A DNA stretch of 64,000 nt from Sulfolobales archaeon (GTDB taxonomy: Archaea; Thermoproteota; Thermoprotei_A; Sulfolobales; AG1), in NCBI GenBank assembly GCA_038867615.1, contig JAWBYA010000001.1, positions 224,001 to 288,000 of the forward strand, read 5' to 3'. This document shows positions 8,908-60,219 of the stretch, in pieces. Made by a program: the position numbers and the translations under genes. Position 1 is the stretch's first letter; each line of letters begins with the position of its first letter. The notes beneath the pieces were generated by a model, which was not told the origin of the DNA, did no database searches, and saw only the letters and a list, made by a program, of their open reading frames with translations.

Positions 8908-8931
8908 ATTTCAATTCTATAGTAGATCGAC
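8908..8931 (-). CRISPR. Solitary CRISPR repeat R1 (GTCGATCTACTATAGAATTGAAAT)
   Basis: This 24-mer recurs at 11408 and 15136. It has the 3' ATTGAAA(N) end and the ATCTACTATAGAATTGAAAG core of Sulfolobales repeats. No array follows. Confidence 0.8.
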
Positions 8932-9123
8932 CCTGCGAAGTCATGGTTTGCTTTTAGCCTAACGACATTGGGGTTTCCATCTAGGTTCGAGAGATCATTC
9001 CCTGGGCGGCTTGAAGCTCTGCTCCCATCACCGTCCAGGGTCAGTATTGAGATCAACTCATCACCAGAAACAATTCCGATCAAAGCTTATAAATACCTCC
9101 CACGAGTATCAATAAGAAAACAG
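8932..9123 (-). repeat. Family A CRISPR-leader-like element, copy A1
   Basis: Co-linear with 15160-15357 and the split copy at 11432-11970; TATA at 9087-9094; palindrome at 9013-9025; terminal AGAAAACAG. Confidence 0.85.
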
Positions 9124-9146
9124 TTCTTCTCATAATTTTATAGTGT

Positions 9147-10151
9147 TTAGAGCTTCTCTTTCCTAAGATCTATCATGTCCTCTACATTCTCGCCAGTGCC
9201 TATGAGGGTTATTGGGACGCCTATCCTCTCCTCTAGATCTTCGATGAATCTGCGTGCTTCTTGGGGTAGTTTTCCCCATTCCCTAACCCCTCTAGCTTCT
9301 CTATACAGGGCGTCTAGCTTTGTTATAGCTACCTGGGTTGCTGAGTTGATTCTCACGGCTTTTCTGGCAAGTTCTATGTTGAAGGGTGCTACTCTTCTGA
9401 GCCTTCCTGTTACGGTTCCTCTTTCGATTAGGCCTAGTTTTTCAGCATCTTCGGGGCTTATCTCGCCCTCGAGAGGCCCTTCACCTACTCTTGTTACGAA
9501 TGATTTGAACACCACTATAACCTGGTCAACATGTTTTGGCCCAGCACCTATTTCTGACAAGATCCCTGCTGCTGATGTGTCTCTCGATGTTACGTAGGGG
9601 TAGGTTCCGTGGTAGAGGCTTAGAAAGAGTCCCTGTGTCCCTTCGACCAGGATCTCTTCTCCCCTCTCGATCATGTCGAGGATCTCTGGGGAGCTGTCGC
9701 AGATGAGATCCTCGATCTCTTTGAACTCCCATGCAAGCTTAAGCCTTCTAAGAACCCTCTCAGCCGTGGCAGCCCCTACCCCCTGGAACGTGGATCCTAT
9801 GCTTCTGAGCTTTTCATCAAGAGCCTCCATCTCGACGTGTCTCTTCTCTATAACGCCTGAGTATCTATCGACACATATCCTGCCCTGGGTTCTTGTCTCC
9901 TCGATCTCTTTTAAGAGGGTATCGATCCTTATGAGGGAGCCTCTGGCTATGAATAGCCTTATATCTTTATTTATGAATGTCGAGGGGACTAGCCTTAGCT
10001 TCCAAACCCTACCTCTATAGGTTAGAGTGTGTCCAGCATTAACACTCCCGGTCCTGATACTAGCACTATATCCTCCCCTGAGTCCTAGGTAGCCGGCTAC
10101 CTTACCCTTACCCTCGTCTCCGAAGAATCCTCCACATACTATTGTTATCAT
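9147..10151 (-). CDS. purA: Adenylosuccinate synthetase, short archaeal form
   Basis: GDEGKGK, NAGHT, EGTQG, GTYPYVTS, GTVTGRLRR and TKLD motifs. Confidence 0.96.
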   Translation of the reverse strand: MITIVCGGFFGDEGKGKVAGYLGLRGGYSASIRTGSVNAGHTLTYRGRVWKLRLVPSTFINKDIRLFIARGSLIRIDTLLKEIEETRTQGRICVDRYSGVIEKRHVEMEALDEKLRSIGSTFQGVGAATAERVLRRLKLAWEFKEIEDLICDSSPEILDMIERGEEILVEGTQGLFLSLYHGTYPYVTSRDTSAAGILSEIGAGPKHVDQVIVVFKSFVTRVGEGPLEGEISPEDAEKLGLIERGTVTGRLRRVAPFNIELARKAVRINSATQVAITKLDALYREARGVREWGKLPQEARRFIEDLEERIGVPITLIGTGENVEDMIDLRKEKL

Positions 10152-10152
10152 T

Positions 10153-11259
10153 CTACCCCAGCCTCACGCCGTGATCCCTATGATAGCTCTCTCTATGAGC
10201 CCCTGGTGCTAGGATAACAAACCTAGCCCTCTCCCACAGCTCCTCTATATTTCTAGCACCGACATATGAGAAGCCCGATCTCAGCCCGCTCACTATGTTT
10301 GAGACAACCTCGGCGACAACTCCTCTATATGGTACGAGCATCTCTATACCCTCTGCAGCATATGACGATAGATCCTCGGGATCCTGGTTATCTATAGATA
10401 CTCTCTGAAGGTATGAGGAATTACTAGCCATACCTCTATACAGCTTATACTTTCTACCATCGATCATAACGGGTTTTCCAGGAGCCTCCTCGGTTCCTGC
10501 TAATAGATAGCCTATCATCGCGCTCGAAGCCCCAGCCGCCAGTGCTTTAACAATATCGCCCGAGGATCTCATACCACCATCCGCTATGATCGGGACTCCG
10601 TAGGGTTTCGCAACGCTATATACATTCATGATCGCTGTGAGCTGGGGAACACCTACACCGGCAACGATTCTCGTGATACAGACATGCCCCGGACCTATAC
10701 CCACCTTGATCCCGTCTACATCTAGCTCGATAAGATCCCTTGCAGCCTCTCCTGTAGCTATGTTACCCACAACGATATCCACGGAATCGCTGATAACCTT
10801 CTTAATATTCCTCACAGCCTCGAAAACTGGTTTTGAATGAGCATGGGCGACATCAATCACTATAGCATCAACACCAGATCTATAGAGCCTCTCAGCCCTC
10901 TCCAGATAATCCCCCCTCACACCAACTGCAGCTGCTACGGCGAGCCTTCCATCAAGGCCTAGCGATTCGTTGCTCGATAATCCTACGGGTTGTTCTTTAA
11001 CCCTCTTCACCTCTTCCACCTGTCTATCGATCGGCATGAATCTATGTATAACACCTATCCCACCCATCCTGGCCATAGCTATAGCCATTCTCGATTCCGT
11101 CACACTATCCATTGCTGCACTTACTAACGGTATATTGATCCATATTCTTCTAGAGAACCTTGTTCTCAGCGACACCTCTGACCTTGAGTTAAGATCCGAG
11201 TAGCTAGGAACTAGAAGGACATCATCTAGGGAGAGACCATAGCCTATTACTTTGCCCAG
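10153..11259 (-). CDS. IMPDH/GMP reductase family protein without CBS domain, GMP-reductase-like
   Basis: SAAMDSV, GIGVIHR, IDVAHAH, GIGPGHVCITR, ADGG and YRGMAS motifs. The conserved N-terminal LSLDDVLLVP lies upstream of the track start, implying a CTG start at 11259. Confidence 0.85.
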   Translation of the reverse strand: MGKVIGYGLSLDDVLLVPSYSDLNSRSEVSLRTRFSRRIWINIPLVSAAMDSVTESRMAIAMARMGGIGVIHRFMPIDRQVEEVKRVKEQPVGLSSNESLGLDGRLAVAAAVGVRGDYLERAERLYRSGVDAIVIDVAHAHSKPVFEAVRNIKKVISDSVDIVVGNIATGEAARDLIELDVDGIKVGIGPGHVCITRIVAGVGVPQLTAIMNVYSVAKPYGVPIIADGGMRSSGDIVKALAAGASSAMIGYLLAGTEEAPGKPVMIDGRKYKLYRGMASNSSYLQRVSIDNQDPEDLSSYAAEGIEMLVPYRGVVAEVVSNIVSGLRSGFSYVGARNIEELWERARFVILAPGAHRESYHRDHGVRLG

Positions 11260-11347
11260 ATATCCCTAACAATCCTGTGTTTAAGGGGTATATAAATACT
11301 AGGCGAAAAAGATCTTTTTATTACCATGAAAAAGTAAAAACCTATCC

Positions 11348-11431
11348 CTTTCTATTAATAGCTACTTGGTATGCTATCTCAGCGGCTTTCTCGCCAGAGA
11401 GAAGCATCTTTCAATTCTATAGTAGATCGAC
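11348..11431 (-). CRISPR. Mini-CRISPR unit: repeat R2 (11408-11431), 37-nt spacer-like segment and possible degenerate terminal repeat (11348-11370)
   Basis: R2 is ctttcaattctatagtagatcgac on the + strand. 60 bp lower lies ctttctattaatagctacttggt, a partial match. R2 itself is solid; the second repeat is tentative. Confidence 0.65.
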
Positions 11432-11970
11432 CCTGTGGGTTTGTTGATGACTGTTGAGCCCAGCTGCATAGGGCTTCTATCTATTGTGAGATCATTCCCT
11501 AGATGGGGTTCGGGCTTCATAGCGGTTGATTTTGCTTGATATCAACCGCTCAGCCCTTGGTTTCATAGGCCTCAGGGCCCCTTTCATTGGAGCCCTTATC
11601 ACTGGCCTCCACCCGTTCGGGGTGACCCCAACCCACAGCTTCCCTTCATTGCATTGCTCTGGTTCATTGCTGTGGGGAACCCCTGCATTTTGGATTTTAT
11701 TTAACCCGCCCCTCGGGTCTCTATCTCTATCCTCATTGTTGGGCGGCATCCCAGTGAAATATAAGAGCTTATATAAGGTTACATTACTGCAGAACTACGA
11801 GCTTAATATCAACCCCTATAAACCACCATGAAGCTCGAAGCAGCTGGCTACGGCTTGGAGCTATGCTCCCATCACCACCTAGAGTCAATATTGAGATCAA
11901 CTCATCACCAGAAACAATTTTAATCAGATATTATAAATCTTTACATAGGATATCAGTAAGAAAAACAGCC
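11432..11970 (-). repeat. Family A leader-like element, copy A2, split by a family B insertion
   Basis: 11432-11506 and 11850-11970 rejoin to a sequence co-linear with A1 and A3; TATA at 11931-11938; palindrome at 11857-11869. Confidence 0.85.
11507..11849. mobile_element. Family B MITE-like element, long copy B2 nested in A2
   Basis: Imperfect ~34-bp subterminal inverted repeats (26/34 by hand); flanked by ATGG and ACGG; close homolog at 29907-30161. Confidence 0.85.
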
Positions 11971-12130
11971 TGTTATAATTATGTCGCCCTTCGAGTACTC
12001 CTTGATCATGTTGTGAAGGCTTCTGCGAAGATTCTCTTACTAGCTATGTCTTTCACTTCTAAGCCTTTCTTAGGGTATTTATAAGTATTCTATAGATAAT
12101 CTATTTATGGGTTCCTTTTTTAAAGCGGGA

Positions 12131-13357: not shown

Positions 13358-13361
13358 AGAT

Positions 13362-14108: not shown

Positions 14109-14168
14109 TCATGATTAGTAATACATGCGATAATATATAGGGTTCCTCCATATAATATTGGTGATCCT

Positions 14169-14432: not shown

Positions 14433-14465
14433 CAGCTAGTATACCAAGAATCGCGGGAGCCGTGG

Positions 14466-14969: not shown

Positions 14970-15135
14970 ATCTGTGATGCAGAGACACGCCCAGACTTGA
15001 TATAAGGGAGCATAAAATAACAACAATCGATACCCAGAGACAAACCATATCGAGGAGCGGTTTGTCTAAAAACATCAGATCCTTTTGGATATTGCTATAC
15101 CAACCCAGCTTGCTACTAGTCCAAACAATAATCCC

Positions 15136-15159
15136 TTTTCAATTCTATAGTAGATCGAT
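15136..15159 (-). CRISPR. Solitary CRISPR repeat R3 (ATCGATCTACTATAGAATTGAAAA)
   Basis: The internal 22 nt are identical to R1 and R2; it abuts leader copy A3; no second repeat was seen. Confidence 0.8.
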
Positions 15160-15357
15160 CCCATGGGTTTATGGGCTGCCGTCGAGCCAAACAGCACTTG
15201 ACTCCCATCTAGGTTTAAGGGATCATCCCCCGGATGGCTCGGAGCATTGCTCCCATCACCACCCAGAATCAACATGGAGATCAACTCATCACCAAAAACA
15301 ATTCCAACCATAAGATTATAAATCTTTCCCACGAATATTAAAAAGAAAACAGCCCAG
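15160..15357 (-). repeat. Family A leader-like element, copy A3
   Basis: Co-linear with A1; TATA at 15316-15323; palindrome GGAGCATTGCTCC at 15241-15253; terminal AAAAGAAAACAGCCCAG. Confidence 0.85.
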
Positions 15358-15483
15358 AGCCTATCCCAAGAAAAGCTCCTATACCGCCGGCTAATCCTGT
15401 TAATACTCTGTCTCGGGTGCTTCTCACAAGCTCCTTGGATGCGATAGCACGCTACCCCTGCTTTAAGTCTTTTAGGTATATTT

Positions 15484-16641: not shown

Positions 16642-16828
16642 CCATGTCTAGTACGTTAGGGAGGCTATATGATTCCTTTAACACGTTTCGATCGATATTT
16701 TGGCTTTATAATGCTAGCATGACTAGCTCTTATCATACAAGCCAGCGATCGGATCTCCGACCAATATAGAATCTTTAGAGTGTTGCTTATTAGTTCGCAC
16801 TGTAAATTATCTAGCAGAGCGTGTCCTC

Positions 16829-17338: not shown

Positions 17339-17352
17339 GAGGGGTAGTGCTT

Positions 17353-25163: not shown

Positions 25164-28145
25164 TTAAGTCGATCTACTAAAGAATTGGGAGAGATCGCGG
25201 TAGAGCTCTACAAGCATCTCCTCCACATCCTCTCTCCTCAAGCTCGGTTGCAGGGCTTTTAACACCATGGTATCTAGCTCGATCCTTTTTTCCTGGGGCG
25301 GGAAGTATTGTTCCGGCAGTCTTTTTAGCTCGGAGTGTTTGAACATATCGAAGATCTCTGAGAGAGTGTTGATCTTACCTTCTGGAAGTGATGTGATATC
25401 AAGGACTGGGAGGAGTTTCCAGTGGGTTATTTTAAGACTGCTCCACGCACCCTCGGTCTCCTCCCTGTGGGCTATGATGCTCATAATCCCCCATGTGGTG
25501 TTAAGCCATAGGCATAGCGCTTTGAGCTTTCTATCATCGTTGCCTGTTTTGAGTCTAACGGCATAGAATATGTTTGAGAGTACAGGTTTTGTAACATAGA
25601 TCGCTGTTACATGGGCTGTGTTGAGCCTTATTCTCTCTGGGACGAGGAGGCTGCTTGCAAACCTCTCAAATATTCTTCTCGCTTTCCCATCCTTCGGAAG
25701 GATCCGGGCGTTAGGATCGGTCTGTAACCGGGTTCTCAACTCTTCTCCCCCACCATATAGGGCTGGCAGAGATCCTGGCGCCTCTGCAGCTCTTCTAAAG
25801 CTATCGTGGAATTGATGCCTGTCAATCCCGATCACCGCTATCTCTCCAAGCCTCTTAACCGGGATCCTTATCTCTCTAGCTCCAAGCCTTATACTACCCT
25901 CTAGCAGCTCTAACACATAGTTTGAGAGCCGCGGGTTTGTGAATGCTAATAGCTTTCCCCAGTTATCCAGGTGCTTTAGAAGCAATCGCCTCGGGATCGT
26001 ATATACAATGCCACAAGATCTTCCAGCCTCTACATTGCTGCCTAGGCTGCTGCTCCCTAGCGTTATATCTATCTCAGCGGCTTTCCCACACCTATCTATG
26101 ATTTCATGTGCCAGCCATACTCCCTCAAGTGCTGTTTTAGGTTTTCTGACCAGGTTTGCTATGCATGTTCTCTCATCCTCAACATGCTTATCAACCCTCC
26201 TTGCGATCACGAGGCACTCGCTCAGGTCTGTAGATTCGCTAAAACCATAGCCTTCTTCGGGATCGTTGCTAACAATAACATATTCTAGGTGGAATCTCGA
26301 TGCTAAGAACGATCGTGCGAGGAACCAGCTTATCCCTGACAAGAGATTCCTGGGTAGAACAAACGCTATCCTACCCCCCTCTTTTACCAGCTCCCCAGCA
26401 ATGTATAGGAAGAGGAGCCCTTCACCAGCCTGTCCAATCTCTAGGAAGGTTTTTACACCTTCCCCGCTGAGTGAGGTTTCTAGTTCTTTCAGGAAAGCCT
26501 TTCCCTCGCTAGTCTCGGATAACATGTATCTCACATATTCTCTAAGTCTCTTGTAGGATCTGAGGAGCTTCTCCCTAGCATGCTTATCCACTATAAAGCC
26601 GAAGAGCCCTGATTCTTTCCTGCCGCCTCTTCCAGTTGCTCTGGTGAAGGGAGGGTTCATTATGATTAGGTCAAACCTTTCTGGAAGATCTATTATTTCT
26701 TCCTTCCTAGAGGCAGAGATCCTGATTATACCTCTGCTCCTCGGAGGGTTTGCAAGAATCCTCTGCACTAGATCCAGGCTTCCCATAGATACAGATCCGT
26801 TAGGGCCTATTCCAAGCGGTGCTGTGTAGATATTCATGCTTTGTGGAGAAGCTTCGGGATTATGGAGGGCAAGGATCGTGGTTGTTATATATGTTGCGAA
26901 TCTAAGGGAATCCAACCCCCAGAGGGTTTTCTCCAAAACAGTCCTGTGGAAGCCCTCAACATCGACTTCCAACCCTTCTTTCAAGCGATCTCTGGTATAG
27001 AGGTATAGAAGACCATCGTAAGAGGCTGAGAGAAGAGTTCCCGAGCCGCATGCTAGATCGGCTATTCTGAAATTATCAAGAGAGCTGAGGCTCTGCCACG
27101 CCTGGTTTGGGGTTGTAAGGGCTAGTCTGGCAAGCAGGTACGATGAAGGTATGCTTGTAAAATATGTTGCTAGGTTCTTCCTAACAGCCCAGCTCCCTAC
27201 TATTGTATGGTATATCTTGCCCGCGAAATCGCGTCTCAACAAGGTCTTGTTGCTTGCTATGCTGCTTGCAAAGCCGATCAGATCCATGATCGCTTGTTGA
27301 GCGTCTATAGGGAGTTTTTCAACGATCTCCTTGGCAATGCTGAAGATCGGTTGGTTGTTTATTTTAACAATACTATCGAAGGCTTTCTCAAGGGCTGGTA
27401 GGCCGTTTCTCCCTCCTACCAGGCTTTCCAGGGGTTTGAGGCCGTGTTTGGCTCTTATACTCTCATAGAGTATGGCGCTTAGGAGGATAGCTAGGGCTGC
27501 TTTACCATAGATCATTTCCTTGATATCCTCTACCTCTCCTATGGAGATGCCGTAGAGTTTATGGAAAACATTGTAGAGCTCTCTACATATAGATAGATCT
27601 CTATCCACAGAGCCTAGGGTTTTGATTAGCCGGTTGATAAGCTTCTCTATCTCCTCCTCGGCTTTTCTAATCATTTCCTCCAAAACCAGGTGCTGGATCG
27701 CTTGGTCTATGCTATCCCTTAGAAGGGGTACATCGACCCTAAGCCACCCTTGCGTGAGCAGCTCTCGCGGAGATTCCTTAGATCTCTTCTCCAAGAAGCG
27801 CGATAGATTTCTCGTCACATCTTCTCCGGGTATGAAGAACCTAGCCCTCAATACAGATCTTTCCAAGATCTCCTCGATCTCATCCTCCGCAACTTCCTCA
27901 GGAAAAGCCTGTCTATCATACCAGATAGCTACGGCTATGTCGCAAAGCCCGCTCTCAAGCCTCTCTATCGCATTTCTTTCAGCAACACGAGCTTCGTAGG
28001 ATCCTTCGAGGGCTATTCTGAAACCCTTATACAGAAGAACTATGCCTGTAGAACCATCTATATATATCTCAACCCTCTCTTTAAAACCATGCCTCCCAAG
28101 CAGCCGGGCTAAGGTCCTGCTAACCCTACCTTCATCGATACCCAA
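25164..28145 (-). CDS. Type IIG/Eco57I-like fused restriction-modification protein (amino-DNA methyltransferase)
   Basis: 993 aa; motif I DLACGSGTLL; motif IV NPPF; long C-terminal target-recognition region. Confidence 0.88.
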   Translation of the reverse strand: MGIDEGRVSRTLARLLGRHGFKERVEIYIDGSTGIVLLYKGFRIALEGSYEARVAERNAIERLESGLCDIAVAIWYDRQAFPEEVAEDEIEEILERSVLRARFFIPGEDVTRNLSRFLEKRSKESPRELLTQGWLRVDVPLLRDSIDQAIQHLVLEEMIRKAEEEIEKLINRLIKTLGSVDRDLSICRELYNVFHKLYGISIGEVEDIKEMIYGKAALAILLSAILYESIRAKHGLKPLESLVGGRNGLPALEKAFDSIVKINNQPIFSIAKEIVEKLPIDAQQAIMDLIGFASSIASNKTLLRRDFAGKIYHTIVGSWAVRKNLATYFTSIPSSYLLARLALTTPNQAWQSLSSLDNFRIADLACGSGTLLSASYDGLLYLYTRDRLKEGLEVDVEGFHRTVLEKTLWGLDSLRFATYITTTILALHNPEASPQSMNIYTAPLGIGPNGSVSMGSLDLVQRILANPPRSRGIIRISASRKEEIIDLPERFDLIIMNPPFTRATGRGGRKESGLFGFIVDKHAREKLLRSYKRLREYVRYMLSETSEGKAFLKELETSLSGEGVKTFLEIGQAGEGLLFLYIAGELVKEGGRIAFVLPRNLLSGISWFLARSFLASRFHLEYVIVSNDPEEGYGFSESTDLSECLVIARRVDKHVEDERTCIANLVRKPKTALEGVWLAHEIIDRCGKAAEIDITLGSSSLGSNVEAGRSCGIVYTIPRRLLLKHLDNWGKLLAFTNPRLSNYVLELLEGSIRLGAREIRIPVKRLGEIAVIGIDRHQFHDSFRRAAEAPGSLPALYGGGEELRTRLQTDPNARILPKDGKARRIFERFASSLLVPERIRLNTAHVTAIYVTKPVLSNIFYAVRLKTGNDDRKLKALCLWLNTTWGIMSIIAHREETEGAWSSLKITHWKLLPVLDITSLPEGKINTLSEIFDMFKHSELKRLPEQYFPPQEKRIELDTMVLKALQPSLRREDVEEMLVELYRDLSQFFSRST
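25168..25191 (+). repeat. Degenerate CRISPR-repeat copy R5 inside the last codons of the R-M gene
   Basis: gtcgatctactaaagaattgggag matches the R2 repeat at 21/24 and is inverted relative to R4. Confidence 0.7.
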
Positions 28146-29845: not shown

Positions 29846-29906
29846 AGTCTCCACCGGATCCTAGTTTTTCCCAGCAAGGTTTTTGGTAAGCCGTGATCCT
29901 ATGTGG

Positions 29907-30161
29907 GGTTCGGGCTTCATTGCGGTTGATATTGATATCAACCGCTCTTCCCTTGGCTTCATAGGCCTCAGGGCTCCTTTCATTGGGGCCCATATCCTGG
30001 ATCTCTCTGTATTTACCCCGCCCACTCGGGTCTTTATTTTTTACCCTCATTGTTGGGCAGCATCCCATAGAATAACAGGGCTTATATAATGTTCATTACT
30101 GCAGAACTACGGGTTTAATATCAACCCCTATAAACCACCATGAAACCTGAAACAGCCGGCT
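29907..30161. mobile_element. Family B MITE-like element, copy B3
   Basis: Aligns to B2 but lacks a ~90-bp internal block; 11-bp perfect IR GCGGTTGATAT-tg-ATATCAACCGC; flanked by TGG on both sides. Confidence 0.85.
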
Positions 30162-30174
30162 ATGGCGGTGACAA

Positions 30175-50414: not shown

Positions 50415-50564
50415 TGATTCCGCCTCTTAGATAGTATGATTGAGAGCTTATTAGCAGGTGTTCGAGCTTTCATCGATTAATAAATACCAAAACCTTTCCC
50501 CTCAGCTTTCTCGATCCAGAGCTCTCCCACAGAATCCTTACCATTAGCCTTAACCTATTCAGCC

Positions 50565-50830
50565 GTTTGTCCCTGGATGTTCATTCCACTCATTTTATTC
50601 ATGGTCTTATCCAGGGGTTTTCGTCTCAACCCTCAGGATCTCGGATCTCTAATCCTGCTGGGTCATGGGTGGCTGTCGAGCCAAAGGGCATGTGGATCCC
50701 ATCTAGGATAAGCTCCGGATGGATTGGAGCGCTGCTCCCGTCTAGGGCTTGTGGGGAAAGATCCACACTGGGGGCAATACATTTCAATGATTATAAATAC
50801 CTCCTACGAATACCAAAAGGAAAAGCCCAG
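50565..50830 (-). repeat. Family A leader-like element, repeat-less copy A4
   Basis: Shares gtcgagccaa, cccatctagg, GGAGC-N3-GCTCC (50726-50738), TATA (50791-50798) and aaagcccag with A1-A3; near-identical inverted copy at 58820-59161. Confidence 0.88.
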
Positions 50831-50961
50831 CTGTAGAATATTTTGAACAAAGCCATGTAATCTAATATTGGTTCTAGTTATCCTATTGGCGGCTCAACCA
50901 CCTTATTATAGAATCTTTATAAATGTGGAATGCGTATAGAATTATATGTAGATGATCGGCA

Positions 50962-52005
50962 TTGAGCACCGATAGTCCCTATGTGTTTGTGGTTGAGAGA
51001 AGCGCGGCCAGATTCTTTTTAAAAGGGTTTATGCTCCTCTTTTTCATCACAGTCTCTACCCTCCTTATAGTTACATCTATAATCATAGCCATAGACCCCA
51101 CGGTGACATCGATCCTTGTACTTATACTTGCACCTATGCTTGCACCTATTATTGTGTTCCTGCTACTGATTAGAAGGATGATGATCATAGTGAGGAGAAA
51201 CCGTGTTTTAAGAGAGCTCTCGGAGAAGCTGCAGAGCCACGGGCCAAACGCGCTCCTAGGAGAGCGGGTAGAGCTCTTCAAAGCCACCTTTGAGGGGGTG
51301 GTTGAGACATTCATGGGAGGCGTAGACAGCGGGCTTAGAAGGAGTAGGCATATTCGTACCAGAGGGATGTATATGACTACAAAGAGGCTCGAGAAGATTG
51401 GTGATGTATATTCTGGACAGGATCTGGCCGAGCTAGGCTCGGGAAACATCATGGCCTTCATTCCATCTAACGAGGGGTTCTTCGACGGAAAGATCCTGAA
51501 GATCGTTGGAGGTAATTATGACAACATAGCAATCATACCAATAACACCCAAAATTACTACTAAGGTTATTGAAGAGAGCGTCGTAGGAGATGACGATGCA
51601 TGCAACTACGGGCTAGAGCTCAAGGGATGCAGGATCAGAGGTAACATAGCACCTCTTATGTCGAAACGAGCCAGATCATATAGGGTTGAGATAGGTATAG
51701 GAGGGGATCTTCATGCAAGGGGGTTTAAACTTCCACTCAGGCTTTTCTCAAAAAGGATCTATTCGGGAGAGCCGGGAACCTTTGAGGCTGAAGCTATTAT
51801 CTGTAAACCAATGATCCTTTTGATTGATATAGACACAATAAATATGGAGGACATAGCTAGAAAGATGAAGAAGTTCCTCGGAATCAGGGATTTCTTCGGA
51901 CAGGGCGAGGCGACCTTTATAGGTTATAGAGAAAACGTGTATGTTCTAAAACTGGTTATAGACAGGCCCTTAGCGAAGGATCTTGTAAAAGAGATCCCGA
52001 TCTAG
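50962..52005 (+). CDS. Uncharacterised protein with two N-terminal TM helices, paralog of 21569-22570
   Basis: Multiple identical peptide blocks shared with 21569-22570. Confidence 0.85.
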   Translation: MSTDSPYVFVVERSAARFFLKGFMLLFFITVSTLLIVTSIIIAIDPTVTSILVLILAPMLAPIIVFLLLIRRMMIIVRRNRVLRELSEKLQSHGPNALLGERVELFKATFEGVVETFMGGVDSGLRRSRHIRTRGMYMTTKRLEKIGDVYSGQDLAELGSGNIMAFIPSNEGFFDGKILKIVGGNYDNIAIIPITPKITTKVIEESVVGDDDACNYGLELKGCRIRGNIAPLMSKRARSYRVEIGIGGDLHARGFKLPLRLFSKRIYSGEPGTFEAEAIICKPMILLIDIDTINMEDIARKMKKFLGIRDFFGQGEATFIGYRENVYVLKLVIDRPLAKDLVKEIPI

Positions 52006-52129
52006 CCTTGCTCCATGTTAAAACGATCCCACAGAACATGTCTGTAAATATATACTTAAGTTACAGAGGGTGCTGAGCAGAGGTGCTATAGATGCGTGTT
52101 ACTCGTTTTCCTGCTATTTTATAGGAAGG

Positions 52130-52921
52130 CTATGTTGCCATAGTAGATCCGCTACTCATTAGTGTGAGAGATATCTCCTCAAGCCTCCTCTTTATATGTA
52201 GCAGAGCCTCGCCCAGTATCTTGTTATTATCATAGCCATTCAATATCTCCTCAAGCTCTTCCCTAGATCTGTTCTTCAGGATCTTTATCTCTTCCACAAG
52301 AAGCGGGACAGTCCTGACAACGTTATCCACTATCGTTATATCTGCAGCCCTTGCTGTCCTTGATAACGGATTGAGGTCTATCGCTATAACCTTCTTACCC
52401 ATCCTCTTCAGAGCCTCTGTCCTATCGCCATCCTCTAGAGCTACTAGCACCACATCTGCAACTAGGATCCCCTCCCTGCTAACAAGCCTCCTCTCACTGC
52501 TAAGCCCTGGTACTCCTTCGACAACATCATCAACACCGAGAACCCTTGGCGCCCCCAACCCTATTAGCTTCCTCGCTATCCTCTCAGCCCGCTCGCGTGT
52601 CCTGTAGAATAGGTTCACCTCGAGCGGTGCTCCCAGCTCTCTTGACAGTCTAATAAGATCCTCAGGGACGAGGGCCGCTGTATTGCCATTAACACTTATA
52701 ACGGGCCTCCTTGCTAGTAGGAGGAGGGCTGCTGAGGCTTTTATAGCCTTTCTAGCAGGCTCTATTGTTTTCTCACCTATCAGGTAGTCGAAGCACTCAC
52801 CCCTCCCATGGGCTATCAGACCCTGTGGTACAACTATCCCCTCTCTGAAACCCTCGACAAGCCTCTCCCTGATTAGTAGAGACTCTCTCCTAGGATGATC
52901 CGGAGGTATCCATGTCTCCAA
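52130..52921 (-). CDS. Phosphopantothenate synthetase (archaeal PPS)
   Basis: [35 protein letters not shown] and IDLNPLSRT motifs; start refined to TTG 52921. Confidence 0.93.
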
Positions 52922-53849
52922 CTGCCTCGAACCCCTTAACAGCCGGTTTATATATGCCAAGAACCTTTTTAACAAGGCTCCCTATAGATCTGGGGATCTC
53001 AAGCTCAGCACCCTTTCTATGGGCTATCACTAGGAGGGATTTCTTAGCATAGTATCCCAGCACCTCCCCCCTCCTCACAAGAGGATCAAGGGATCTATCT
53101 ATAGCATTGCCAAAATCCCCTGAGAGGAAACCTACTCTTCTAGAGAAACCGTTAGAGATCTCTAGAAACATCTCTAAACCAGGATCCTTCTGAAACTCTC
53201 TATAAGCCTCCATACCAGCACTAGCTATCCTATCCCACATGGTGCTAAGCATATCTGGGGTAGTGATCCTTCTCTCTATAGATGCTATTGTGAAGAACAC
53301 CCTATCAAGCTCAGGATCCCTTATAGCTATAGCCTCACCATAGCCCGGCGCTCCCGGCTTTAGCCTCATCACAAGCCCACCACCAGTAACCATGGCTATC
53401 ACATCCCCCAACCCTGTTAGTGAGAGAACCTCAGCCTTGTGGGCAAGCCTGGACGCTTCTAAAAGGTTCTCCTTAACAGAGCAGGATCCAAGCCTATTCT
53501 TTATCGCTTCGCAGGATAGTGCAAGGGCTATGAAGGCGCTAACAGCTCCCCCCATCCCAAGAGGTATAGATGACCTCACCTCAATACCGTTTCCAAGCAT
53601 GGCTTCCTCCTCAATGATCCTTGCAGGCTTGATCTCGACACAGCCACCATCAACCATAACCCTACAGTCTATCTTTAACCCTCTGCCATAGATGCCCGGC
53701 TCAACCAAAACCCCAGCGCCGAGGGAGCCTGTTGTGAGCGGATCACCGCTCCTAACAGGAACCCAGAACCCTGTTATATGGTGCGGGGACCTGTATATCG
53801 TGTTAGAGACCCTAGAGTAATAACCAACTCGGGGAAAAAGGTTTTCCAC
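52890..53849 (-). CDS. Pantoate kinase (GHMP family)
   Basis: [26 protein letters not shown] and PGAPG motifs; adjacent to PPS; start uncertain. Confidence 0.88.
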
Positions 53850-53855
53850 GGATCA

Positions 53856-54467
53856 TCAGTGCGTGAATTCTATATTATCAACACTCCTAACAATCCTGCC
53901 TTTATAGAGGAAATCAACCTGCCTCAAAGCAGCATATAGATCGAACTGGGTTAGTGCAGAGATCCCGTCTATAGGGACAACTATATCGAACCATCTTAGA
54001 GCAGCACTACCAGCTGTGTGGAGAACACAGATGTTAGCCACGGTTCCCGTTATTATGAGCACATCCCTCCTCAACACCCTTGAGAGGAGATGCTCTAGCT
54101 GTGTTCCGTAGAATGCATCATACCTCAGCTTCTTAATAACAATATCACCCTCAATGGGTTTGAGCTCCTCAACGATCTCTGCCCCCCATGTTTCTGCAAC
54201 AGCATGCTCCCCCCAGATCCTGAACTCAGGGTCTTCCTTCATATGCCAATCCTGTGTATAGATCACAGGTACCCCATGGATCCTAGCCCTGTTTATAAGC
54301 CTAGCTATGTTCGCTATGGTTTTGGGGGCATCGGGTACGAATAACCTTCCCCTGGGGTGGGCGAAGTCGTTCTGCATATCAACGACTATAACTGCTGCTC
54401 TAGCCGGGTCTATGCTCACCTTCTCATGGATCGTGATCTCTGGTAACTGAATACTCTGGGGAAGCAT
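53856..54467 (-). CDS. Isochorismatase/nicotinamidase-like cysteine hydrolase
   Basis: VVDMQNDF, QDWH, KLRYDAF and ANICVLHT motifs. Confidence 0.92.
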   Translation of the reverse strand: MLPQSIQLPEITIHEKVSIDPARAAVIVVDMQNDFAHPRGRLFVPDAPKTIANIARLINRARIHGVPVIYTQDWHMKEDPEFRIWGEHAVAETWGAEIVEELKPIEGDIVIKKLRYDAFYGTQLEHLLSRVLRRDVLIITGTVANICVLHTAGSAALRWFDIVVPIDGISALTQFDLYAALRQVDFLYKGRIVRSVDNIEFTH

Positions 54468-54526
54468 AGAACCACCATAGTGAACATGTGTTCGCAACTT
54501 ATAAGTTAATAATAACAACATCGAGG

Positions 54527-55546
54527 TTATATGGGTGAGAGCCTCCCCAACCTCTTCTCAAGAATACGTGGGATTGTTTTCAACACATCATCAAGAGTAG
54601 CCTTGAGAGAGGCTACAGCTGCTAGCCTATGACCTCCCCAACCTCCACCATAGACATCTGCGAGCTCTCCCAGGATTAATTCCCCTAACCCCATCTCTCT
54701 ACAAACCTCCTCCGAACATCTGGCAACGACTCTCACGAGACCATCCTTCTCCGAGAGTACTAGAGCTATATCGCACCCAGCCCCCATTAGAACCTGGGCT
54801 GACGACGCCTCGTAAGCCCCTACATGGGTTATGCATACGAGCACATTATCCCCGGATCTATATGCTGTGAGCCTTGACATCGATTTAAGCCTAGCTATCC
54901 TCTCGCTAATCTCAAGGGGTCTTTTTATGAGCCTCAATGCATCCTGTATCCTTGCACCCTGCGTCATAAGGAACCTGGTTGCCTCGATAGCTGCGAGCGA
55001 GGCTATAGATAGCGATCTTGTGTCATAGAGTATCCCGGCCAAGATCATGTTGGCAGCATCACCCGAGCTAATCTCGATAGAGAGCTCCTCTAGCATTAGT
55101 GTGCAGAGCTCTGTTGTGGATGAGGCGCCGCCCTCTATAATCCTCCTCGCTCCCGGTGATTGTTCGGGGGATATATGATGATCTATTATGTATATGTCTC
55201 TAAATACACCGCACTCCACAGGAGATCTTGAGCATGAGGGTGTGTCAACAAGGACAAGAACCCATGCGTCATTACCAACCCTTCCTGGGCACTCCTCTAT
55301 ATAGCCTTTTGAAACCATGCTCTGGAAAAGAGGCTTCGATATAAGGTCTAAACCGCCCTCTGTGACAAAGCATGCGGGCTTGCCAGAGGATCTCAGGGCT
55401 ATGAGGGAAATCGAGAGTGCTGAGGATATAGAATCAGGATCCGCTGATGGATGTGACGTTACCGCTATTCTTTTTACCCTCGAGACCTCCCACAGCTCCC
55501 TCCCTAGATCTCTTAATTCTCTCCTCAGCCTCGCCAAATCCAGCAT
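54527..55546 (-). CDS. DHH-family phosphoesterase
   Basis: HPSADPDS, VDT, IDHH, GILYDT and GWGGH..AA motifs. Confidence 0.9.
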   Translation of the reverse strand: MLDLARLRRELRDLGRELWEVSRVKRIAVTSHPSADPDSISSALSISLIALRSSGKPACFVTEGGLDLISKPLFQSMVSKGYIEECPGRVGNDAWVLVLVDTPSCSRSPVECGVFRDIYIIDHHISPEQSPGARRIIEGGASSTTELCTLMLEELSIEISSGDAANMILAGILYDTRSLSIASLAAIEATRFLMTQGARIQDALRLIKRPLEISERIARLKSMSRLTAYRSGDNVLVCITHVGAYEASSAQVLMGAGCDIALVLSEKDGLVRVVARCSEEVCREMGLGELILGELADVYGGGWGGHRLAAVASLKATLDDVLKTIPRILEKRLGRLSPI

Positions 55547-55784
55547 CGATCACCTCGTCAACTATTCTAAAAAACGTCTTATCATCAAGCGGGGCCGGTG
55601 AGAACACCTGAAGATCTATCCCGAGATCTATACCCCCATCCCTTGATCTCGCCACCTTTATTGCCACAACATATTGAGCCTTTTTACCAAGCCTTCTCTC
55701 AATCTCCTTCCCCACTCTATCCTCAACAGCTATTGCTAGATCCTCTAGAGATGATCCGCTAGCCTCCTCCGCCCTTTCTTCCAT
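55434..55784 (-). CDS. Small archaeal protein, DUF3194-like
   Basis: Acidic small protein between prefoldin beta and the DHH gene; family call is from context. Confidence 0.6.
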   Translation of the reverse strand: MEERAEEASGSSLEDLAIAVEDRVGKEIERRLGKKAQYVVAIKVARSRDGGIDLGIDLQVFSPAPLDDKTFFRIVDEVIDAGFGEAEERIKRSREGAVGGLEGKKNSGNVTSISGS

Positions 55785-56133
55785 AGTATCTTCCCATGAT
55801 CTCGTTAACCCTTGCCTCAAGATCCCTTATCTCAGAGCTTATACTAGACTCCTGCCTCTCAAGAGCCCTAAGCCTGAGCTCAAGTATATCCTTCCTATCA
55901 CTCAGCTCCTTCTCAGCGTCTTCCTTACTAACCCTCACCATGAGATGCCCAGCACTCTTGAATATAAGGGCATCGGGAGCAGCTCCCTTGAGGAGTTCAA
56001 GAGCTCTCTCAACTTCTTTCAGCTCGGCCTGAACAACACCCTTCTCAGCCTGAACCTGTCCAAGCTTCGCCCTAAGTTGCTGTAGCTTCACCGCATACTG
56101 CTCAAGCTCCGGTGGGACAACCTCCGCCAACAC
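55759..56133 (-). CDS. pfdB: Prefoldin subunit beta
   Basis: Coiled coil, IFKSAGHLMV hairpin, coiled coil, LELRL..LERQE. Confidence 0.93.
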   Translation of the reverse strand: MLAEVVPPELEQYAVKLQQLRAKLGQVQAEKGVVQAELKEVERALELLKGAAPDALIFKSAGHLMVRVSKEDAEKELSDRKDILELRLRALERQESSISSEIRDLEARVNEIMGRYYGRKGGGG

Positions 56134-56331
56134 ATACCCCTGTATAGTAGCATATGAACCCTTATTTTTTCAATTTTTCATTCCATAGAAGATCGGTAGA
56201 CCTTGCTGGAAGCCCTTCCCGGTATTTATAGCTATATAGAGACCTTCGCATTGAGCATAGCTATTGTTTTAACAAAGCCAAGGTTTATTGGTCTTGTGTT
56301 TCTGACCATTGTTTCCACGGGATCTTCGATG

Positions 56332-57174
56332 CTATCTCTTTATATAGGGCTTGAACTCATAGTCGATCTTCATTATATCGTCTGTATATAGCCTCCACCC
56401 CATAGATCCTGCCAGCTCTTCAACATGCTCTTTAGAAGTAGCCCTTGGTATTGGTACTAGTGTGCTCCACTTCTGATACCAGTTAAGGGCTATCTGGAGC
56501 GGTGTTTTCCCATACCTAGCTCCTATCTCCTTCAAAACCTGGTTTGATGATAATGCCCCTTTATCGAGGGGTGTGTATGCTAGGTATAGTATCCCCTCTT
56601 TCTCGCAATACGGTATTACATCGATCTCGTCTCCTCTGTTTGTGAGGCTATATCTATTCTCAACAACAGCTATATCCGTGTGGCTTAGTAGGGATCTAGC
56701 CTCCTCTATCTGGCTCAGGCTGAAGTTAGAAACCCCTATGCTCCTCACCAGCCCCTCCCTCCACAGATCCTCCAGAACCCTTAGAGCTTCTCTCAGGGGT
56801 GTGTCTTTCTCGAGCCAGTGTATTAGATATGAATCCACATATTCGAGACCAAGTCTCGAGAGGGAGCCTCTGAGCGATTTATAGATCGAGTCTCTATCCC
56901 TCAGATTGCGGGGATGTATCTTGGTAACTATAAAGAGATCCTCTCTACGGCCTCCCCAAACCTTTATAGCCTTGCCAACAACCTCTTCAGCAAAACCATC
57001 GCTATAGATCTCTGCTGTATCGATCAAAGTAATCCCTAGCTGAAAAGCCCTCACAACCCCCTCAACCCATATAGATTCAAGAGACCTATCAGTCCTCCTA
57101 CCCCCTGTCCCCAACCCTATTGGTGGAACACTCCTACCAAGCTTGGGTATATACTTCTGCTCCAAAGACATCAC
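56332..57174 (-). CDS. Aldo/keto reductase
   Basis: IDTAEIY, IVTK, LIHW, IGVSNF and AYTPL motifs. Confidence 0.95.
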   Translation of the reverse strand: MMSLEQKYIPKLGRSVPPIGLGTGGRRTDRSLESIWVEGVVRAFQLGITLIDTAEIYSDGFAEEVVGKAIKVWGGRREDLFIVTKIHPRNLRDRDSIYKSLRGSLSRLGLEYVDSYLIHWLEKDTPLREALRVLEDLWREGLVRSIGVSNFSLSQIEEARSLLSHTDIAVVENRYSLTNRGDEIDVIPYCEKEGILYLAYTPLDKGALSSNQVLKEIGARYGKTPLQIALNWYQKWSTLVPIPRATSKEHVEELAGSMGWRLYTDDIMKIDYEFKPYIKR

Positions 57175-57341
57175 CGAGGTAGTAATTTAAGGCATATAAT
57201 AAGCAGGGATCTCAAAACAAGAACATATGATCGTATCTATGATATTATCAAGTATACAGCAAACACTTAGCCAAACTAAACACGGGTTGGACATGCCGGC
57301 ATGATAAATAAGGACACTCTATATAATACCTTGGTGGTCTT

Positions 57342-58106
57342 CTGAGAATTGCTGCAGCATCCTGGAGCGGGGGGAAGGATTCCTATCTAGCCTTCCACAG
57401 CGCTTATGAGAAGGGATTAAGGATCCTCTATACGATCCACATGCATGTTGAAGACATGGTATCATATCACGGACCTCTAGACATCATAATGGCTCAGCAA
57501 GCCTCACTCAACACAATTGGGATTGTGAGAAGAACAACCTGGGGCGAGTATGAGAAGCATTTTAAAGAGATACTTGCAGGTCTCAAGAGAATCGGTGTTG
57601 AGGCAGCCGTATTTGGCGACATATATATCGAGGATCATAGACTGTGGGTTGAAAGAGTATGCAGAGAGATAGGGATCGAGGCTCTAGAACCCCTATGGGG
57701 ATTCAATAGTCTCGAAAACGTTAGAAGGGCTCTAAACATGGGTGTTAAAGCCCTGATCGTGAGGGTTCATGATAGAGAGCCTCTCTCAAAACATGTTGGG
57801 CGTGTATTGGATGGAGAGGTGATAGAGGATCTCGTAAGGGAGGGAATAGACCCCTCGGGAGAGCACGGCGAATACCACACAATAGTCCTCGACGCTCCCC
57901 TCTTCAGATATAGGGTAGAGATCGTTGAGGGAAGGATAGAGATCCTTAGCGGAAAGATGGCTGATAGAACCTATAGATATAGAGTGTTTATTCCAACAAA
58001 ATACAGGGTTGTTGATAAGCACGAGGGCTTCAAAAGAGCTTCTCAAGAACAAAAGCTACATAACACCCATCCCCAGAGGCTTCTACGTCCCTCAACAAAA
58101 ACCTAG
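57342..58106 (+). CDS. Diphthine--ammonia ligase-like PP-loop ATPase
   Basis: SWSGGKDS is in frame upstream of the track start; VFGDI, EPLW and DPSGEHGEYHT.V.DAPLF follow; requires a CTG start at 57342. Confidence 0.88.
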   Translation: MRIAAASWSGGKDSYLAFHSAYEKGLRILYTIHMHVEDMVSYHGPLDIIMAQQASLNTIGIVRRTTWGEYEKHFKEILAGLKRIGVEAAVFGDIYIEDHRLWVERVCREIGIEALEPLWGFNSLENVRRALNMGVKALIVRVHDREPLSKHVGRVLDGEVIEDLVREGIDPSGEHGEYHTIVLDAPLFRYRVEIVEGRIEILSGKMADRTYRYRVFIPTKYRVVDKHEGFKRASQEQKLHNTHPQRLLRPSTKT

Positions 58107-58165
58107 TATGGGTCTACCCTATCTATAGCGTGTGAATATATGATATAAAAAGATCTATTTGGTCT

Positions 58166-58660
58166 TTACTTAGCGGTCTGTCCTTTCTTAAGTTTCTCTA
58201 AAACCCTCTCTACCTCATTATAGTCAGGCTCTACCCTCGGATCTTCTGAGACCCATTTATACACAACAACACCCTTAGGATCTATTATGAACACCGCTCT
58301 CTTAGCCAGCCTCTTAAGCCCTAGCCCGAGAAGGTCTGGCATCACTACACCGTATTTCTCTATAACCTCCCTGTTATAGTCGCTCAGCAGTGTGAAGTTA
58401 AGCCTATTAACCTCTTTAAACACTCTTAGAACAAACGGGCTGTCAACACTTATACCTATCACTTCAGCGTCTAGACCCTCAAGCTTAGCCATTCTGTCTC
58501 TAAATGTGCACATCTCCCTTGTACATACCTCGGTAAATGCTCCTGGAAAGAAGGCTAGCACAACAAACCTACCCTTTGCCAGGAACTCTGAGAGGCTTCT
58601 CTTCTTAAGCGTTGTGTCTAAGAGTTCGAAGTCAGGCGCCTTCTCACCGACCTGAACCAC
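58166..58660 (-). CDS. Peroxiredoxin, BCP/PrxQ-like
   Basis: FPGAFTEVCTREMC, GISVDS, LLSD and KRAVFII motifs. Confidence 0.93.
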   Translation of the reverse strand: MVQVGEKAPDFELLDTTLKKRSLSEFLAKGRFVVLAFFPGAFTEVCTREMCTFRDRMAKLEGLDAEVIGISVDSPFVLRVFKEVNRLNFTLLSDYNREVIEKYGVVMPDLLGLGLKRLAKRAVFIIDPKGVVVYKWVSEDPRVEPDYNEVERVLEKLKKGQTAK

Positions 58661-58819
58661 TAGATTTTCACCTCATCACTTTCGTATGAAGCCTTATATA
58701 TACTCCTAACCAGCTAACCAGCATTTCACGAGGATCCAGCATCTCTAAGCGCATAATCCTTATAGAGACACATAGCTATTCTTCCACATAGCAGCAGACC
58801 TGAGGGTTATGAGGAGGAT

Positions 58820-59161
58820 TGGGCTGTTTTCTTTTTGATATATATAAGGAGGATTAATAGGTTTTGGAAATTTTCATTGATATAGGGGCAATGCCTGTGG
58901 GCTGCTTTCCTGCTAACACCCAGGGGTATTTATAGTCCTTGAAATGTATTACCCCCAGTGTGGATCTTTCCCCACAAGCCCTAGACGGGAGCAGCGCTCC
59001 AATCCATCCGGAGCTTATCCTAGATGGGATCCACATGCCCTTTGGCTCGACGGTCGCCCATGACCCCGCAGGATCAGAGATCCGAGATCCTGAGGGTGGA
59101 GACGAAAACCCCTGGATGTGACCATGAATAAAATGAGTGGAATGAAGATCCGGGGACAAAC
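58820..59161 (+). repeat. Family A leader-like element, repeat-less copy A5 with duplicated 5' head, upstream of cas6
   Basis: Reverse complement of A4 with ~13 differences in ~235 bp by hand; TATA at 58928-58935; TGGGCTG(T/C)TTTC-type head at both 58820 and 58898. Confidence 0.88.
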
Positions 59162-59247
59162 TGTGTCATATTATGCATGAAGTACAGTGTTCGCTGTGTT
59201 GTTGGGAATCGAAATATTATGGAATTTGGAATAATTATTGAGGGGCT

Positions 59248-60219
59248 ATGGAGGGTTCCGGCGAGAACTCAGGAGGGGCTTGGCATGTTGGGGATTTTCT
59301 AGTAAATATTTATTTGAGCCTGACTCCTGTTCGTGACGTGATCCTACCCCCTCTCAGCTCTAAGGTTATTAAGAATTTAATAGATTCTGGGAGCTTTCTC
59401 AAGGGTTTGGGGACTCTTAGTTCTTCAAAGGATCACTATAAGCCTTTCTTCATATCATGTCTCTATAGGGCTGATGGTAAGAGGCTATATAGAGTTCATG
59501 GCAAGAAGGGCTATGATAGTCTGTTAACTGCTAGGGGTGGGGAGCATCTCATGGCGAGGGTGTCTGCTGTTGTGCCGAGGGACGTTATAGGTGATTTGCT
59601 AGGCATTGGGAGAGGGGGTTTTGAGACGAGCTATGGCTCTTTTAATGTTGTTTTCGACAAGATCGAGGTTATAGATCTTAGGGAGCTCAGGCTCGACCTC
59701 TCAAGGGGTCTTGTTATGGTTTTTAAAACACCTGTTATCCTATCCCCGAAGATTATTCTACCACCGCTGAAGAAGATCATGGATAAGTATGGTAAAACGA
59801 AGATCGGTCATCTAACGCTACCAGTACCTGGGTTGATCTTTGCACATGCTCTCAGACTATGGAATAGATCTGTGCCGGAGGATCTTAGGTTAACGAGGCC
59901 GAATGATAAGGATGATATATACTCATACAGAGCTGCAGTGATGGGTACAGCTTTAACCGAGGTGGTGGATCACAAAACCTGGACCGAGACAGTAATTCTA
60001 GGGAAGAATGAGAAAGGGGTTCTTAGAAAGACCAGAGGGTTTAGAGGGTATATTGTTATGAATATAAAGCACAAGATCACTAGGAGGGCTATGGAGAGGG
60101 CGCTAGCCCTAGCCAAATACCTGGGGATTGGGAGGGGTAGGGGTATAGGTCTTGGCGAGGTAGAGATCGATCTTAGGGTTGAGAGAGGAGGGACCGAGCT
60201 GGGTAGCGAGGGTATCTAG
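59248..60219 (+). CDS. cas6: CRISPR-associated endoribonuclease Cas6, stand-alone
   Basis: C-terminal G-rich loop ALAKYLGIGRGRGIGLGEV (GhGxxxxxGhG); KPFFIS, F.TP and RGFRG blocks of the crenarchaeal Cas6 RAMP fold. No other cas gene in the window. Confidence 0.9.
   Translation: MEGSGENSGGAWHVGDFLVNIYLSLTPVRDVILPPLSSKVIKNLIDSGSFLKGLGTLSSSKDHYKPFFISCLYRADGKRLYRVHGKKGYDSLLTARGGEHLMARVSAVVPRDVIGDLLGIGRGGFETSYGSFNVVFDKIEVIDLRELRLDLSRGLVMVFKTPVILSPKIILPPLKKIMDKYGKTKIGHLTLPVPGLIFAHALRLWNRSVPEDLRLTRPNDKDDIYSYRAAVMGTALTEVVDHKTWTETVILGKNEKGVLRKTRGFRGYIVMNIKHKITRRAMERALALAKYLGIGRGRGIGLGEVEIDLRVERGGTELGSEGI

Follow-up and report, generated by a model that had tools for sequence, protein, structure and literature searches.

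We analyzed a 64,000-nucleotide stretch of the genome of an archaeon of the order Sulfolobales (hereafter the window; C1:224001-288000), in which five copies (A1-A5) of a short element and a cas6 gene are found. The host genome (G000; 2.22 Mb, 28 contigs, 94% complete) was compared with three relatives, G001, G002, and G003, the genomes being 90-95% identical. A first-pass annotation had read the copies as dispersed CRISPR leaders, three of them joined to one repeat unit and two without a repeat, next to an orphan cas6. All five copies lie where that annotation placed them, and we refined their limits (Table 1). A1-A3 do end in a solitary CRISPR-type repeat, GTCGATCTACTATAGAATTGAAA, but its common part is 23 nucleotides (nt) instead of 24, the 24th base being T, G, and A, respectively, and it lies ~159 nt and not ~155 nt from the TATA box. 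A4 and A5, which are 95% identical across 237 nt and stand in inverted orientation, have no repeat, and cas6 lies behind A5, in agreement with the annotation. We refer to repeat-bearing copies as R-type and to copies with an entire scaffold and no repeat as L-type.

The five copies belong to a much larger family. A whole-genome nhmmer search with A1, A3, A4, and A5 as queries returned 65 loci in G000, which upholds a multicopy family and not a count of five. Eleven are R loci (A1-A3, C1:114363, C1:143588, C1:485433, C1:535912, C2:202570, C4:201422, C5:93952, and C7:66331), with one further R fragment at C4:28496. The majority of the other loci are L copies of ~345 nt with a sharp end (...CATCCAGGGACAAACGG), and two, C2:148729 and C4:137233, are hybrids with an R-style 5' part and an L-style 3' part. 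A full insertion sequence (IS) of 1494 bp at C2:203162-204655 carries tnpB only (an open reading frame with PF07282) and recurs in G002 and G003 at 87-89% identity. Positions 8-168 of A5 match the left end of this IS (C2:204491-204655 and C1:2119-2283) and positions 155-355 its right end (C2:203158-203370 and C1:780-1002), and both ends flank tnpB. Of the five TnpB zinc-ribbon hits, two (C1:985-1179 and C2:203360-203554) are immediately followed downstream by an L-type scaffold copy. A1-A5 are almost certainly miniature, non-autonomous derivatives of this 1.5-kb tnpB-only IS. The "terminal motif plus TATA" corresponds to the left end of the IS and the promoter located there, and A4 and A5, which had been called repeat-less leaders, are whole miniature IS derivatives without a protein gene.

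Table 1. Elements and associated features in the window (positions count from the first nucleotide of the window; MITE, miniature inverted-repeat transposable element)
Feature	Position	Strand	Description
A1	8909-9123	-	R-type: IS left end with TATA box (~9087-9096), 5' scaffold helices 1-2, repeat at 8909-8931 abutting host DNA
A2	11409-11968	-	R-type: repeat at 11409-11431; copy split by a family-2 MITE at 11505-11857
A3	15137-15352	-	R-type: repeat at 15137-15159
A4	~50563-50828	-	L-type: short left end, entire guide-RNA scaffold, right-end terminus ...GGGACAAACGG
A5	58820-59164	+	Full L-type: duplicated promoter module (TATA boxes near 58840 and 58930), entire scaffold, right end
Inverted segment between A4 and A5	50829-58819		8 kb, housekeeping genes
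cas6	59248-60219	+	323 amino acids (aa); PF17952 (9.9e-17), PF10040 (1.9e-9)
thi4 C-terminal remnant	11348-11407	-	Would-be "spacer" side of A2
pspC-domain gene C-terminal remnant	15078-15134	-	N-terminal remnant at 15353-15445
Family-2 MITE inside A2	11505-11857		Derived from a second tnpB IS; several dozen genomic matches

The RNA structure of the family agrees with this origin. RNAalifold, applied to 23 intact scaffold copies from several genomes (22 of 45 full-length copies were left out as degenerate), gave a four-helix structure with 88.5% of cells paired, compared to 81.8% in column shuffles, none of 500 of which reached the observed value. Compensatory changes were seen in 20 of 55 pairs, a number reached by one of 500 shuffles, and slid versions of the structure were only 33-46% paired. 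In L-type copies and in the full IS, the structured scaffold overlaps the 3' end of tnpB and finishes at the right end. In this TnpB guide-RNA (omegaRNA) scaffold, the GGAGC-N3-GCTCC palindrome forms the tip of helix 1. The TATA box, palindrome, and terminal motif are therefore shared as annotated but are not parts of a leader, and the IS-end homology together with the scaffold structure identifies the supposed leader as an IS left end plus omegaRNA scaffold.

The central 100-180 nt of the element are conserved in other genera and families of the order, at one to three copies per genome; the A3 query matched 13 and the A5 query 15 of 31 genomes (both including G000). The same RNA directly follows the TnpB C-terminus in two other families of the order (PF07282, 1.6e-13). 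At the gathering score, the only Rfam match in the window was a tRNA (1849-1923, plus strand), and the elements and nine related loci gave no Rfam match at the gathering score or at E values up to 10, except for weak sR14 in A3. This C/D-box match (15237-15296, minus strand; 17.4 bits against a gathering score of 38, E 0.02) sits within an R-specific insert of helix 1, in which GUGAUGA/GUGAUGG motifs suggest kink-turns.

Presence and absence of the units vary among the 90-95% identical genomes, and the earlier proposal that they spread as a mobile element holds. Where a relative has the empty site, all five L-type or IS insertions are clean, lying beside GG(G) and ending in GG, with no target duplication. 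A search for the Y1 transposase TnpA (PF01797) gave no hits in the 94% complete G000, and the only serine recombinase (PF00239; C23:6616-7053) is the sole mobilisation candidate. From sequence, the GG ends, the missing Y1 transposase, and the serine recombinase fit a putative IS607-type mobilisation. The 7.4-kb contig C23 is itself matched by two spacers of the array of a congener (L012) and is therefore probably a mobile element. A second miniature family (family 2) is also present in the window, inside A2 and at 29900-30166 and 3568-3619. A family-2 element follows the tnpB hits at C1:12309 and C1:51361, family-2 elements entered R copies twice, at different positions, and a full-length family-2 IS copy lies inside the orthologous R element of G002.

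In the R subfamily, a host CRISPR repeat stands in for the 3' scaffold half. The change to the 23-nt repeat falls at one and the same scaffold point in all 11 R copies, inside the 5' strand of helix 3, and these copies are without the 3' strands of the long-range helix and of helix 3 as well as all of helix 4. With the scaffold left within helix 3, what is missing from R copies is the portion that adjoins the guide in a TnpB guide RNA. This chimera of a CRISPR repeat within a TnpB guide-RNA scaffold is unusual, and its function is putative.

As annotated, the solitary repeat is a bona fide member of the ATTGAAAG class of CRISPR repeats, and the window encodes a Cas6. The repeat of the R copies is identical at 21 of 23 bases to the repeat of the 122-repeat main array (GAAGATCTACTATAGAATTGAAAG; C1:626880-634762) and at all 23 to a two-repeat mini-array (C1:487878-487964, the TCGATC variant). 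An exact match was also found in the repeat of a metagenomic array, L093, an ordinary array of 67 repeats on a 4408-nt metagenome contig whose repeat is the R variant plus G; hence arrays with the R repeat variant exist in nature. The R copies themselves are followed by no array: a second repeat occurs after none of the 11 R copies in G000 and none of four further copies in G002 and G003, as the first-pass annotation had noted for the window. A degenerate solitary repeat, AGTCGATCTACTAAAGAATTGGGA, lies at 25167-25190 (plus strand; 4 mismatches) and is not joined to an R body; a more degenerate repeat on the opposite strand ~160 nt upstream, likewise with no R body, is a possible partner.

R copies come in two forms. 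In R+ copies, the repeat is still followed by a right-end terminus of 11 nt, (A/G)GAGACAAACGG, as at C5:93962 (G000, G002, and G003), G002:C37, and G002:C2, and in degenerate form at C4:201441; at G002:C37, the copy has inserted cleanly, after GGG, into a family-2 miniature element. R- copies (A1-A3 and similar) have lost this terminus along with 65-650 bp of neighbouring host DNA, so that the repeat meets host sequence and genes are destroyed. Such replacement of host DNA was found at all four sites with both junctions readable, A1, A2, A3, and G002:C28. At the A1 site, G002 and G003 have ~600 bp with a 156-aa winged helix-turn-helix gene, which is replaced in G000. A2 replaces ~650 bp inside thi4 (PF01946, 5e-65; intact in G001, G002, and G003), of which G000 retains only a 20-codon remnant and no other copy in the genome. 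A3, which is also present in G002, has taken the place of 320 bp of a PspC-domain gene, whose intact form is found in G003, and the G002:C28 copy replaces ~65 bp found in G000. At all six lineage-specific R- copies (these four plus C1:535917 and G003:C11, read on their repeat side), alignment with the element-free allele restarts 0-3 nt from base 23 of the repeat. The intact allele has GG(G) at the left junction for three of the four sites with both junctions readable, as is seen for normal insertions; no motif, microhomology, or GG crossover shared by the R- deletion ends was consistent across sites. In the simplest order of events, a clean R+ insertion would come first, and the terminus and neighbouring DNA would then be lost.

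Two more ordinary explanations of solitary repeats were considered. Simple decay of former arrays is ruled out, since the relatives carry intact genes at the A1-A3 sites, and what they hold there is genes and not arrays. At A2 and A3, contigs from public sequencing runs bridge flank, repeat, and element with 0 mismatches, which makes an array collapsed by the assembler unlikely at these two loci; A1 was not bridged.

Between A4 and A5, an 8-kb segment of G000 is inverted compared to G002 and G003, and the A4 junction holds one L copy in G002 and none in G003. The adjacency of A5 and cas6 is therefore a by-product of rearrangement, and G003 has cas6 at the same place with no A5 beside it. The genes in the inverted block encode a phosphopantothenate synthetase, an isochorismatase, a DHH protein, an aldo-keto reductase, a diphthamide synthase, and a peroxiredoxin. 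Overall, the elements reshape the genome, with three gene losses within 6.5 kb, including that of the only thi4, plus the 8-kb inversion.

We compared the elements with the true CRISPR machinery of the host. Csa5, Cas7/Csa2, Cas5a, Cas3', Cas3'', and CsaX (type I-A) are encoded at C1:615.5-624.7 kb, and Csa1, Cas1, Cas2, Cas4, Csx1, and a ring nuclease at C1:635-640 kb, adjoining the 122-repeat array; a complete type I-A system thus lies ~340 kb from the window copies. With the type I-A module and Csa1-Cas1-Cas2-Cas4 on the same contig, and a syntenic cas6 without A5 in G003, the cas6 of the window is not an orphan. The start of a second array lies on contig C27, and contig C11 carries a second Cas7 and a Cas6 paralog (33% identity to the window cas6) with a different repeat. 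Genes with CRISPR-associated Rossmann fold domains (Csx1 and the ring nuclease; C1:635100-637700) adjoin cas1, although no type III repeat-associated mysterious protein was detected (PF03787, no hits in the assembly).

True leaders (C1:634763+, C27, C1:4877xx, and C7:43774) consist of a TATA box, an internal degenerate repeat, ~100 nt, and the first repeat, and neither nhmmer nor BLAST matched them to the element. The stretch upstream of the R repeat is unlike them and is, as described above, the left end and 5' scaffold of a TnpB IS. In three of the true leaders (C1:634763-634900, C27, and C1:487752-487877), the degenerate repeat lies ~110-126 nt before the first repeat, with a half-repeat between them. 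A second class of solitary repeats (C1:485791, 606100, 429135, 450530, and 387802) has a TATA box, ~25 nt, and one repeat, and no R body. This class shares the layout of the degenerate repeat in true leaders, and two of its members lie 4-10 kb from the type I-A operon.

The proposal that the units are dispersed host leader-repeat modules, acting as seeds for new arrays or as CreA-like regulators, is largely refuted by these comparisons, and we consider it very improbable. Its supports are the genuine repeat and the presence of adaptation genes. Against it, the body is unrelated to true leaders, and a second repeat occurs in none of 15 repeat-bearing copies. A metagenome scan for the pattern "R body + repeat + spacer + repeat" had as its sole match an ordinary 67-repeat array with a chance spacer match. 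The copies lie at least 340 kb from the cas genes and not in the cas-locus position expected of CreA or of CRISPR RNA (crRNA)-like RNAs (crlRNAs), no partial-match targets were found, and the copies disrupt genes. For 45-nt flanks of R copies, a search for targets in trans returned matches of 16-20 nt, no better than chance.

The age of the copies is informative about whom the repeat serves. In copies private to one or two genomes, the repeat has 0, 0, 1, 0, 1, and 0 mismatches, compared to 2, 3, and 3 in more widely shared copies, and the three orthologues of C5:93962 are each mutated at the ATTGAAA end. The decay of old resident repeats indicates that resident copies are not under selection to keep the repeat, and the feature serves the element and not the host. 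At the same time, the bodies are 20-30% divergent, yet recent repeats are perfect or near-perfect, so the repeat has been maintained in lineages that are still spreading. Two regions bear on recent exchange. The A3 tract at 15088-15442 (355 nt) has 7 differences between G000 and G002 (98% identical), whereas the 5 kb around A3 are ~91% identical and the 98% tract reaches only ~50-90 nt into the flanks; such a pattern resembles a recent transfer that involved a short conversion tract. Furthermore, the 12 kb at C7:57045-69045, with one R and one L copy, are 100% identical to G003:C15:272594-284594 and, over 7 kb, to G002:C44, owing either to recent transfer or to an assembly or binning artefact. 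In an exact-pattern scan of genome contigs, R junctions were found at two loci in one other species-level genome, and a pattern scan of the viral contigs of IMG/VR gave 0 matches.

Taken together, we favor the view, at a probability of roughly 60%, that the R copies are selfish TnpB-IS miniatures with a repeat-swapped scaffold that could feed crRNA-like guides derived from their flanks to Cas6 and the type I-A effector complex (Cascade). The internal promoter would transcribe through the repeat into the flank, and Cas6 would cut 8 nt before the repeat end. With a 24th base that varies among copies, the handle of 8 nt would read ATTGAAAN, and the product, ATTGAAAN plus flank, would be a crRNA-like guide for Cascade, the counterpart of the flank guide that the parent element provides to TnpB. 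That the R repeat is actually used in this crRNA-like manner is a more tentative proposition, which we think somewhat doubtful.

Several observations weigh against this view. At positions 2-3, where it has TC in place of AA, the R repeat departs from that of the main array, and its 24th base varies among copies. Old R copies with decayed repeats give no sign of host-level selection, and the zero hits for a Y1 transposase leave the recombinase on C23 as the only candidate for mobilisation. Some junctions are less exact: at C1:114556, homology to G002 restarts ~35 nt past the repeat; at C2:202753, the first ~20 nt past the repeat differ between G000 and G002; and at C1:143599, ~140 nt of unique DNA follow the repeat, while the left junction there is occupied in G003 by an L-type hybrid that is only ~80% identical. 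The 121 main-array spacers yielded no useful match within the genome or at the loci, and none in a phage collection. When they were pooled with those of a relative's array, three imperfect protospacers were found, with CTA, CTA, and TGT upstream, from which no protospacer-adjacent motif (PAM) is derivable. In X14, a low-depth metatranscriptome (contigs only) and the sole RNA run that contained part of the window, repeat-spacer-repeat contigs matched the solitary repeats and none ran across an R body. Finally, G000 is metagenome-assembled, and strain mixing is possible.

The serious rival is a neutral accident, a real but minority possibility. One miniature would have recombined with an array or a solitary repeat, the 23 nt being carried along since then as a functionless passenger, and the adjacent deletions would be by-products of faulty transposition or excision of an element with a damaged right end. 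The old copies with decayed repeats agree with such an accident, as do the destruction of genes by R- copies, including the sole thi4, the metatranscriptome without an R-body contig, the failure to find trans targets of the flanks, and the confinement of R elements to a narrow clade in our scans (two loci in one other genome, none viral). It does not readily explain why bodies that diverge by 20-30% end in recent repeats that are perfect or near-perfect, nor why the host junction is exact at six of six lineage-specific R- copies, which random deletion would not predict.

A more far-reaching possibility, which we consider unlikely, is that the repeat represents an effector swap. In the intact scheme of the parent TnpB system, the guide matches the element-free allele; here, Cas6 and type I-A Cascade, and not TnpB, would obtain such a guide, as the crRNA from an R- flank matches element-free alleles, in which native sequence and not the repeat stands before the target. 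Cleavage by type I-A and recombinational repair would then copy the element, making it a homing or gene-drive element that spreads replacement alleles between strains. The exact junction at the repeat end fits this scheme, and so does the A3 tract with its short reach into the flanks of otherwise ~91% identical genomes. Close relatives have neither A1 nor A2, yet each of the two diverges from every other G000 copy by at least 19%, which points to import of ready-made alleles. The trinucleotides that precede the junction in the element-free alleles (24-nt register) are TCT, GCA, CCT, CCT, CCG, and CTC, that is, three CCN and one TCN, and CCN is the type I-A PAM in Sulfolobales work. This register, however, was picked after the fact, and the three protospacer matches show CTA, CTA, and TGT upstream, with no PAM derivable. 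A single conversion-like tract was found, and older shared copies are no more alike than their flanks. Moreover, R+ copies could not target empty sites, since the first 11 bases of their spacer are transposon-derived. The same logic of copying into the empty allele is described for the parent TnpB system in a published study (10.1101/2023.03.14.532601).

We also considered whether the promoter-driven solitary repeats act as decoys, in the manner of an RNA anti-CRISPR (Racr), by soaking up Cas6 or Cascade subunits and blunting immunity against the transposon family or the DNA that carries it. The genome has ~11 solitary repeats, each with its own strong promoter, one copy lies on the 12-kb segment shared at 100% identity by three genomes whose identity is otherwise 90-95%, and Racr provides a precedent (PMC10651486). 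The copies, however, are chromosomal, many are decayed, and they lie within disrupted genes; none is found in viral contigs, and the genome retains a 122-repeat array and an intact cas set. This reading is weak, like those of array seeds and regulators, and we regard it as improbable.

Whichever explanation applies, sequences that look like dispersed CRISPR leaders can be guide-RNA modules of transposons, which is a trap for annotation. The R copies are a natural chimera in which a class 1 CRISPR repeat occupies the exact position at which a TnpB guide RNA joins its guide. Should the repeat be in use, they would be a direct example of guide-RNA modules crossing between obligate mobile element-guided activity (OMEGA) and CRISPR systems, with a selfish element borrowing the Cascade of its host. 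At the level of titles and abstracts in the literature, no CRISPR repeat inside a TnpB-IS derivative is described, and the supplementary tables of TnpB surveys could hold cases.

How do these elements compare with known systems? Methanocaldococcus jannaschii has long-repeat/short-repeat units, in which dispersed copies of a long element are followed by CRISPR repeats; these are real leaders heading arrays. They resemble the R copies in being multicopy and bearing a repeat, but R copies have one repeat, no spacers, and a transposon origin. In TnpB omegaRNA homing, the guide is the DNA flanking the right end and the natural target is the element-free allele, which would also be the arrangement in R copies. 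Unlike the omegaRNA, however, R copies are without the TnpB-binding 3' scaffold and have a class 1 (Cas6/Cascade) repeat instead, so that any guide made from them would serve another effector.

The L-type copies are of a known kind. Protein-less miniature derivatives of IS200/IS605-IS607 elements that encode a TnpB guide RNA (palindrome-associated transposable element [PATE]-like elements) are described in the study cited above (10.1101/2023.03.14.532601). Like these, A4 and A5 consist of a left end and a right end with a guide-RNA scaffold, and L-type copies are multicopy, leave the target unduplicated, and would depend on TnpB and a transposase supplied in trans. They differ in that the L-type copies here have their own archaeal TATA promoter and are present in dozens in one crenarchaeal genus, compared to one to three copies in other families of the order. 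A further difference is that the GG ends and the lack of a Y1 transposase here fit IS607-type mobilisation (PMC13565253).

With Racr, CreA-CreTA, and crlRNAs, the R copies share one repeat outside an array and an own promoter. The known examples are located in viruses or cas loci and have defined targets, whereas R copies are part of a transposon derivative, scattered over the chromosome in disrupted genes, with no trans target detected by our searches. CRISPR-associated transposons (CASTs) with an atypical or delocalized homing crRNA are similar in that the mobile element brings along a guide, linked to a repeat, that directs its own targeting; CASTs own Cas genes and a fixed spacer, whereas the present elements contain no cas genes and have the flank of the insertion as their "spacer". 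Finally, the TnpB-to-Cas12 intermediates (TranC) also join a TnpB guide-RNA scaffold with CRISPR repeats (PMC13565253). TranC retains a TnpB-like effector and type V-like repeats, whereas in the R copies the repeat is of type I-A and the TnpB-binding part of the scaffold has been lost.

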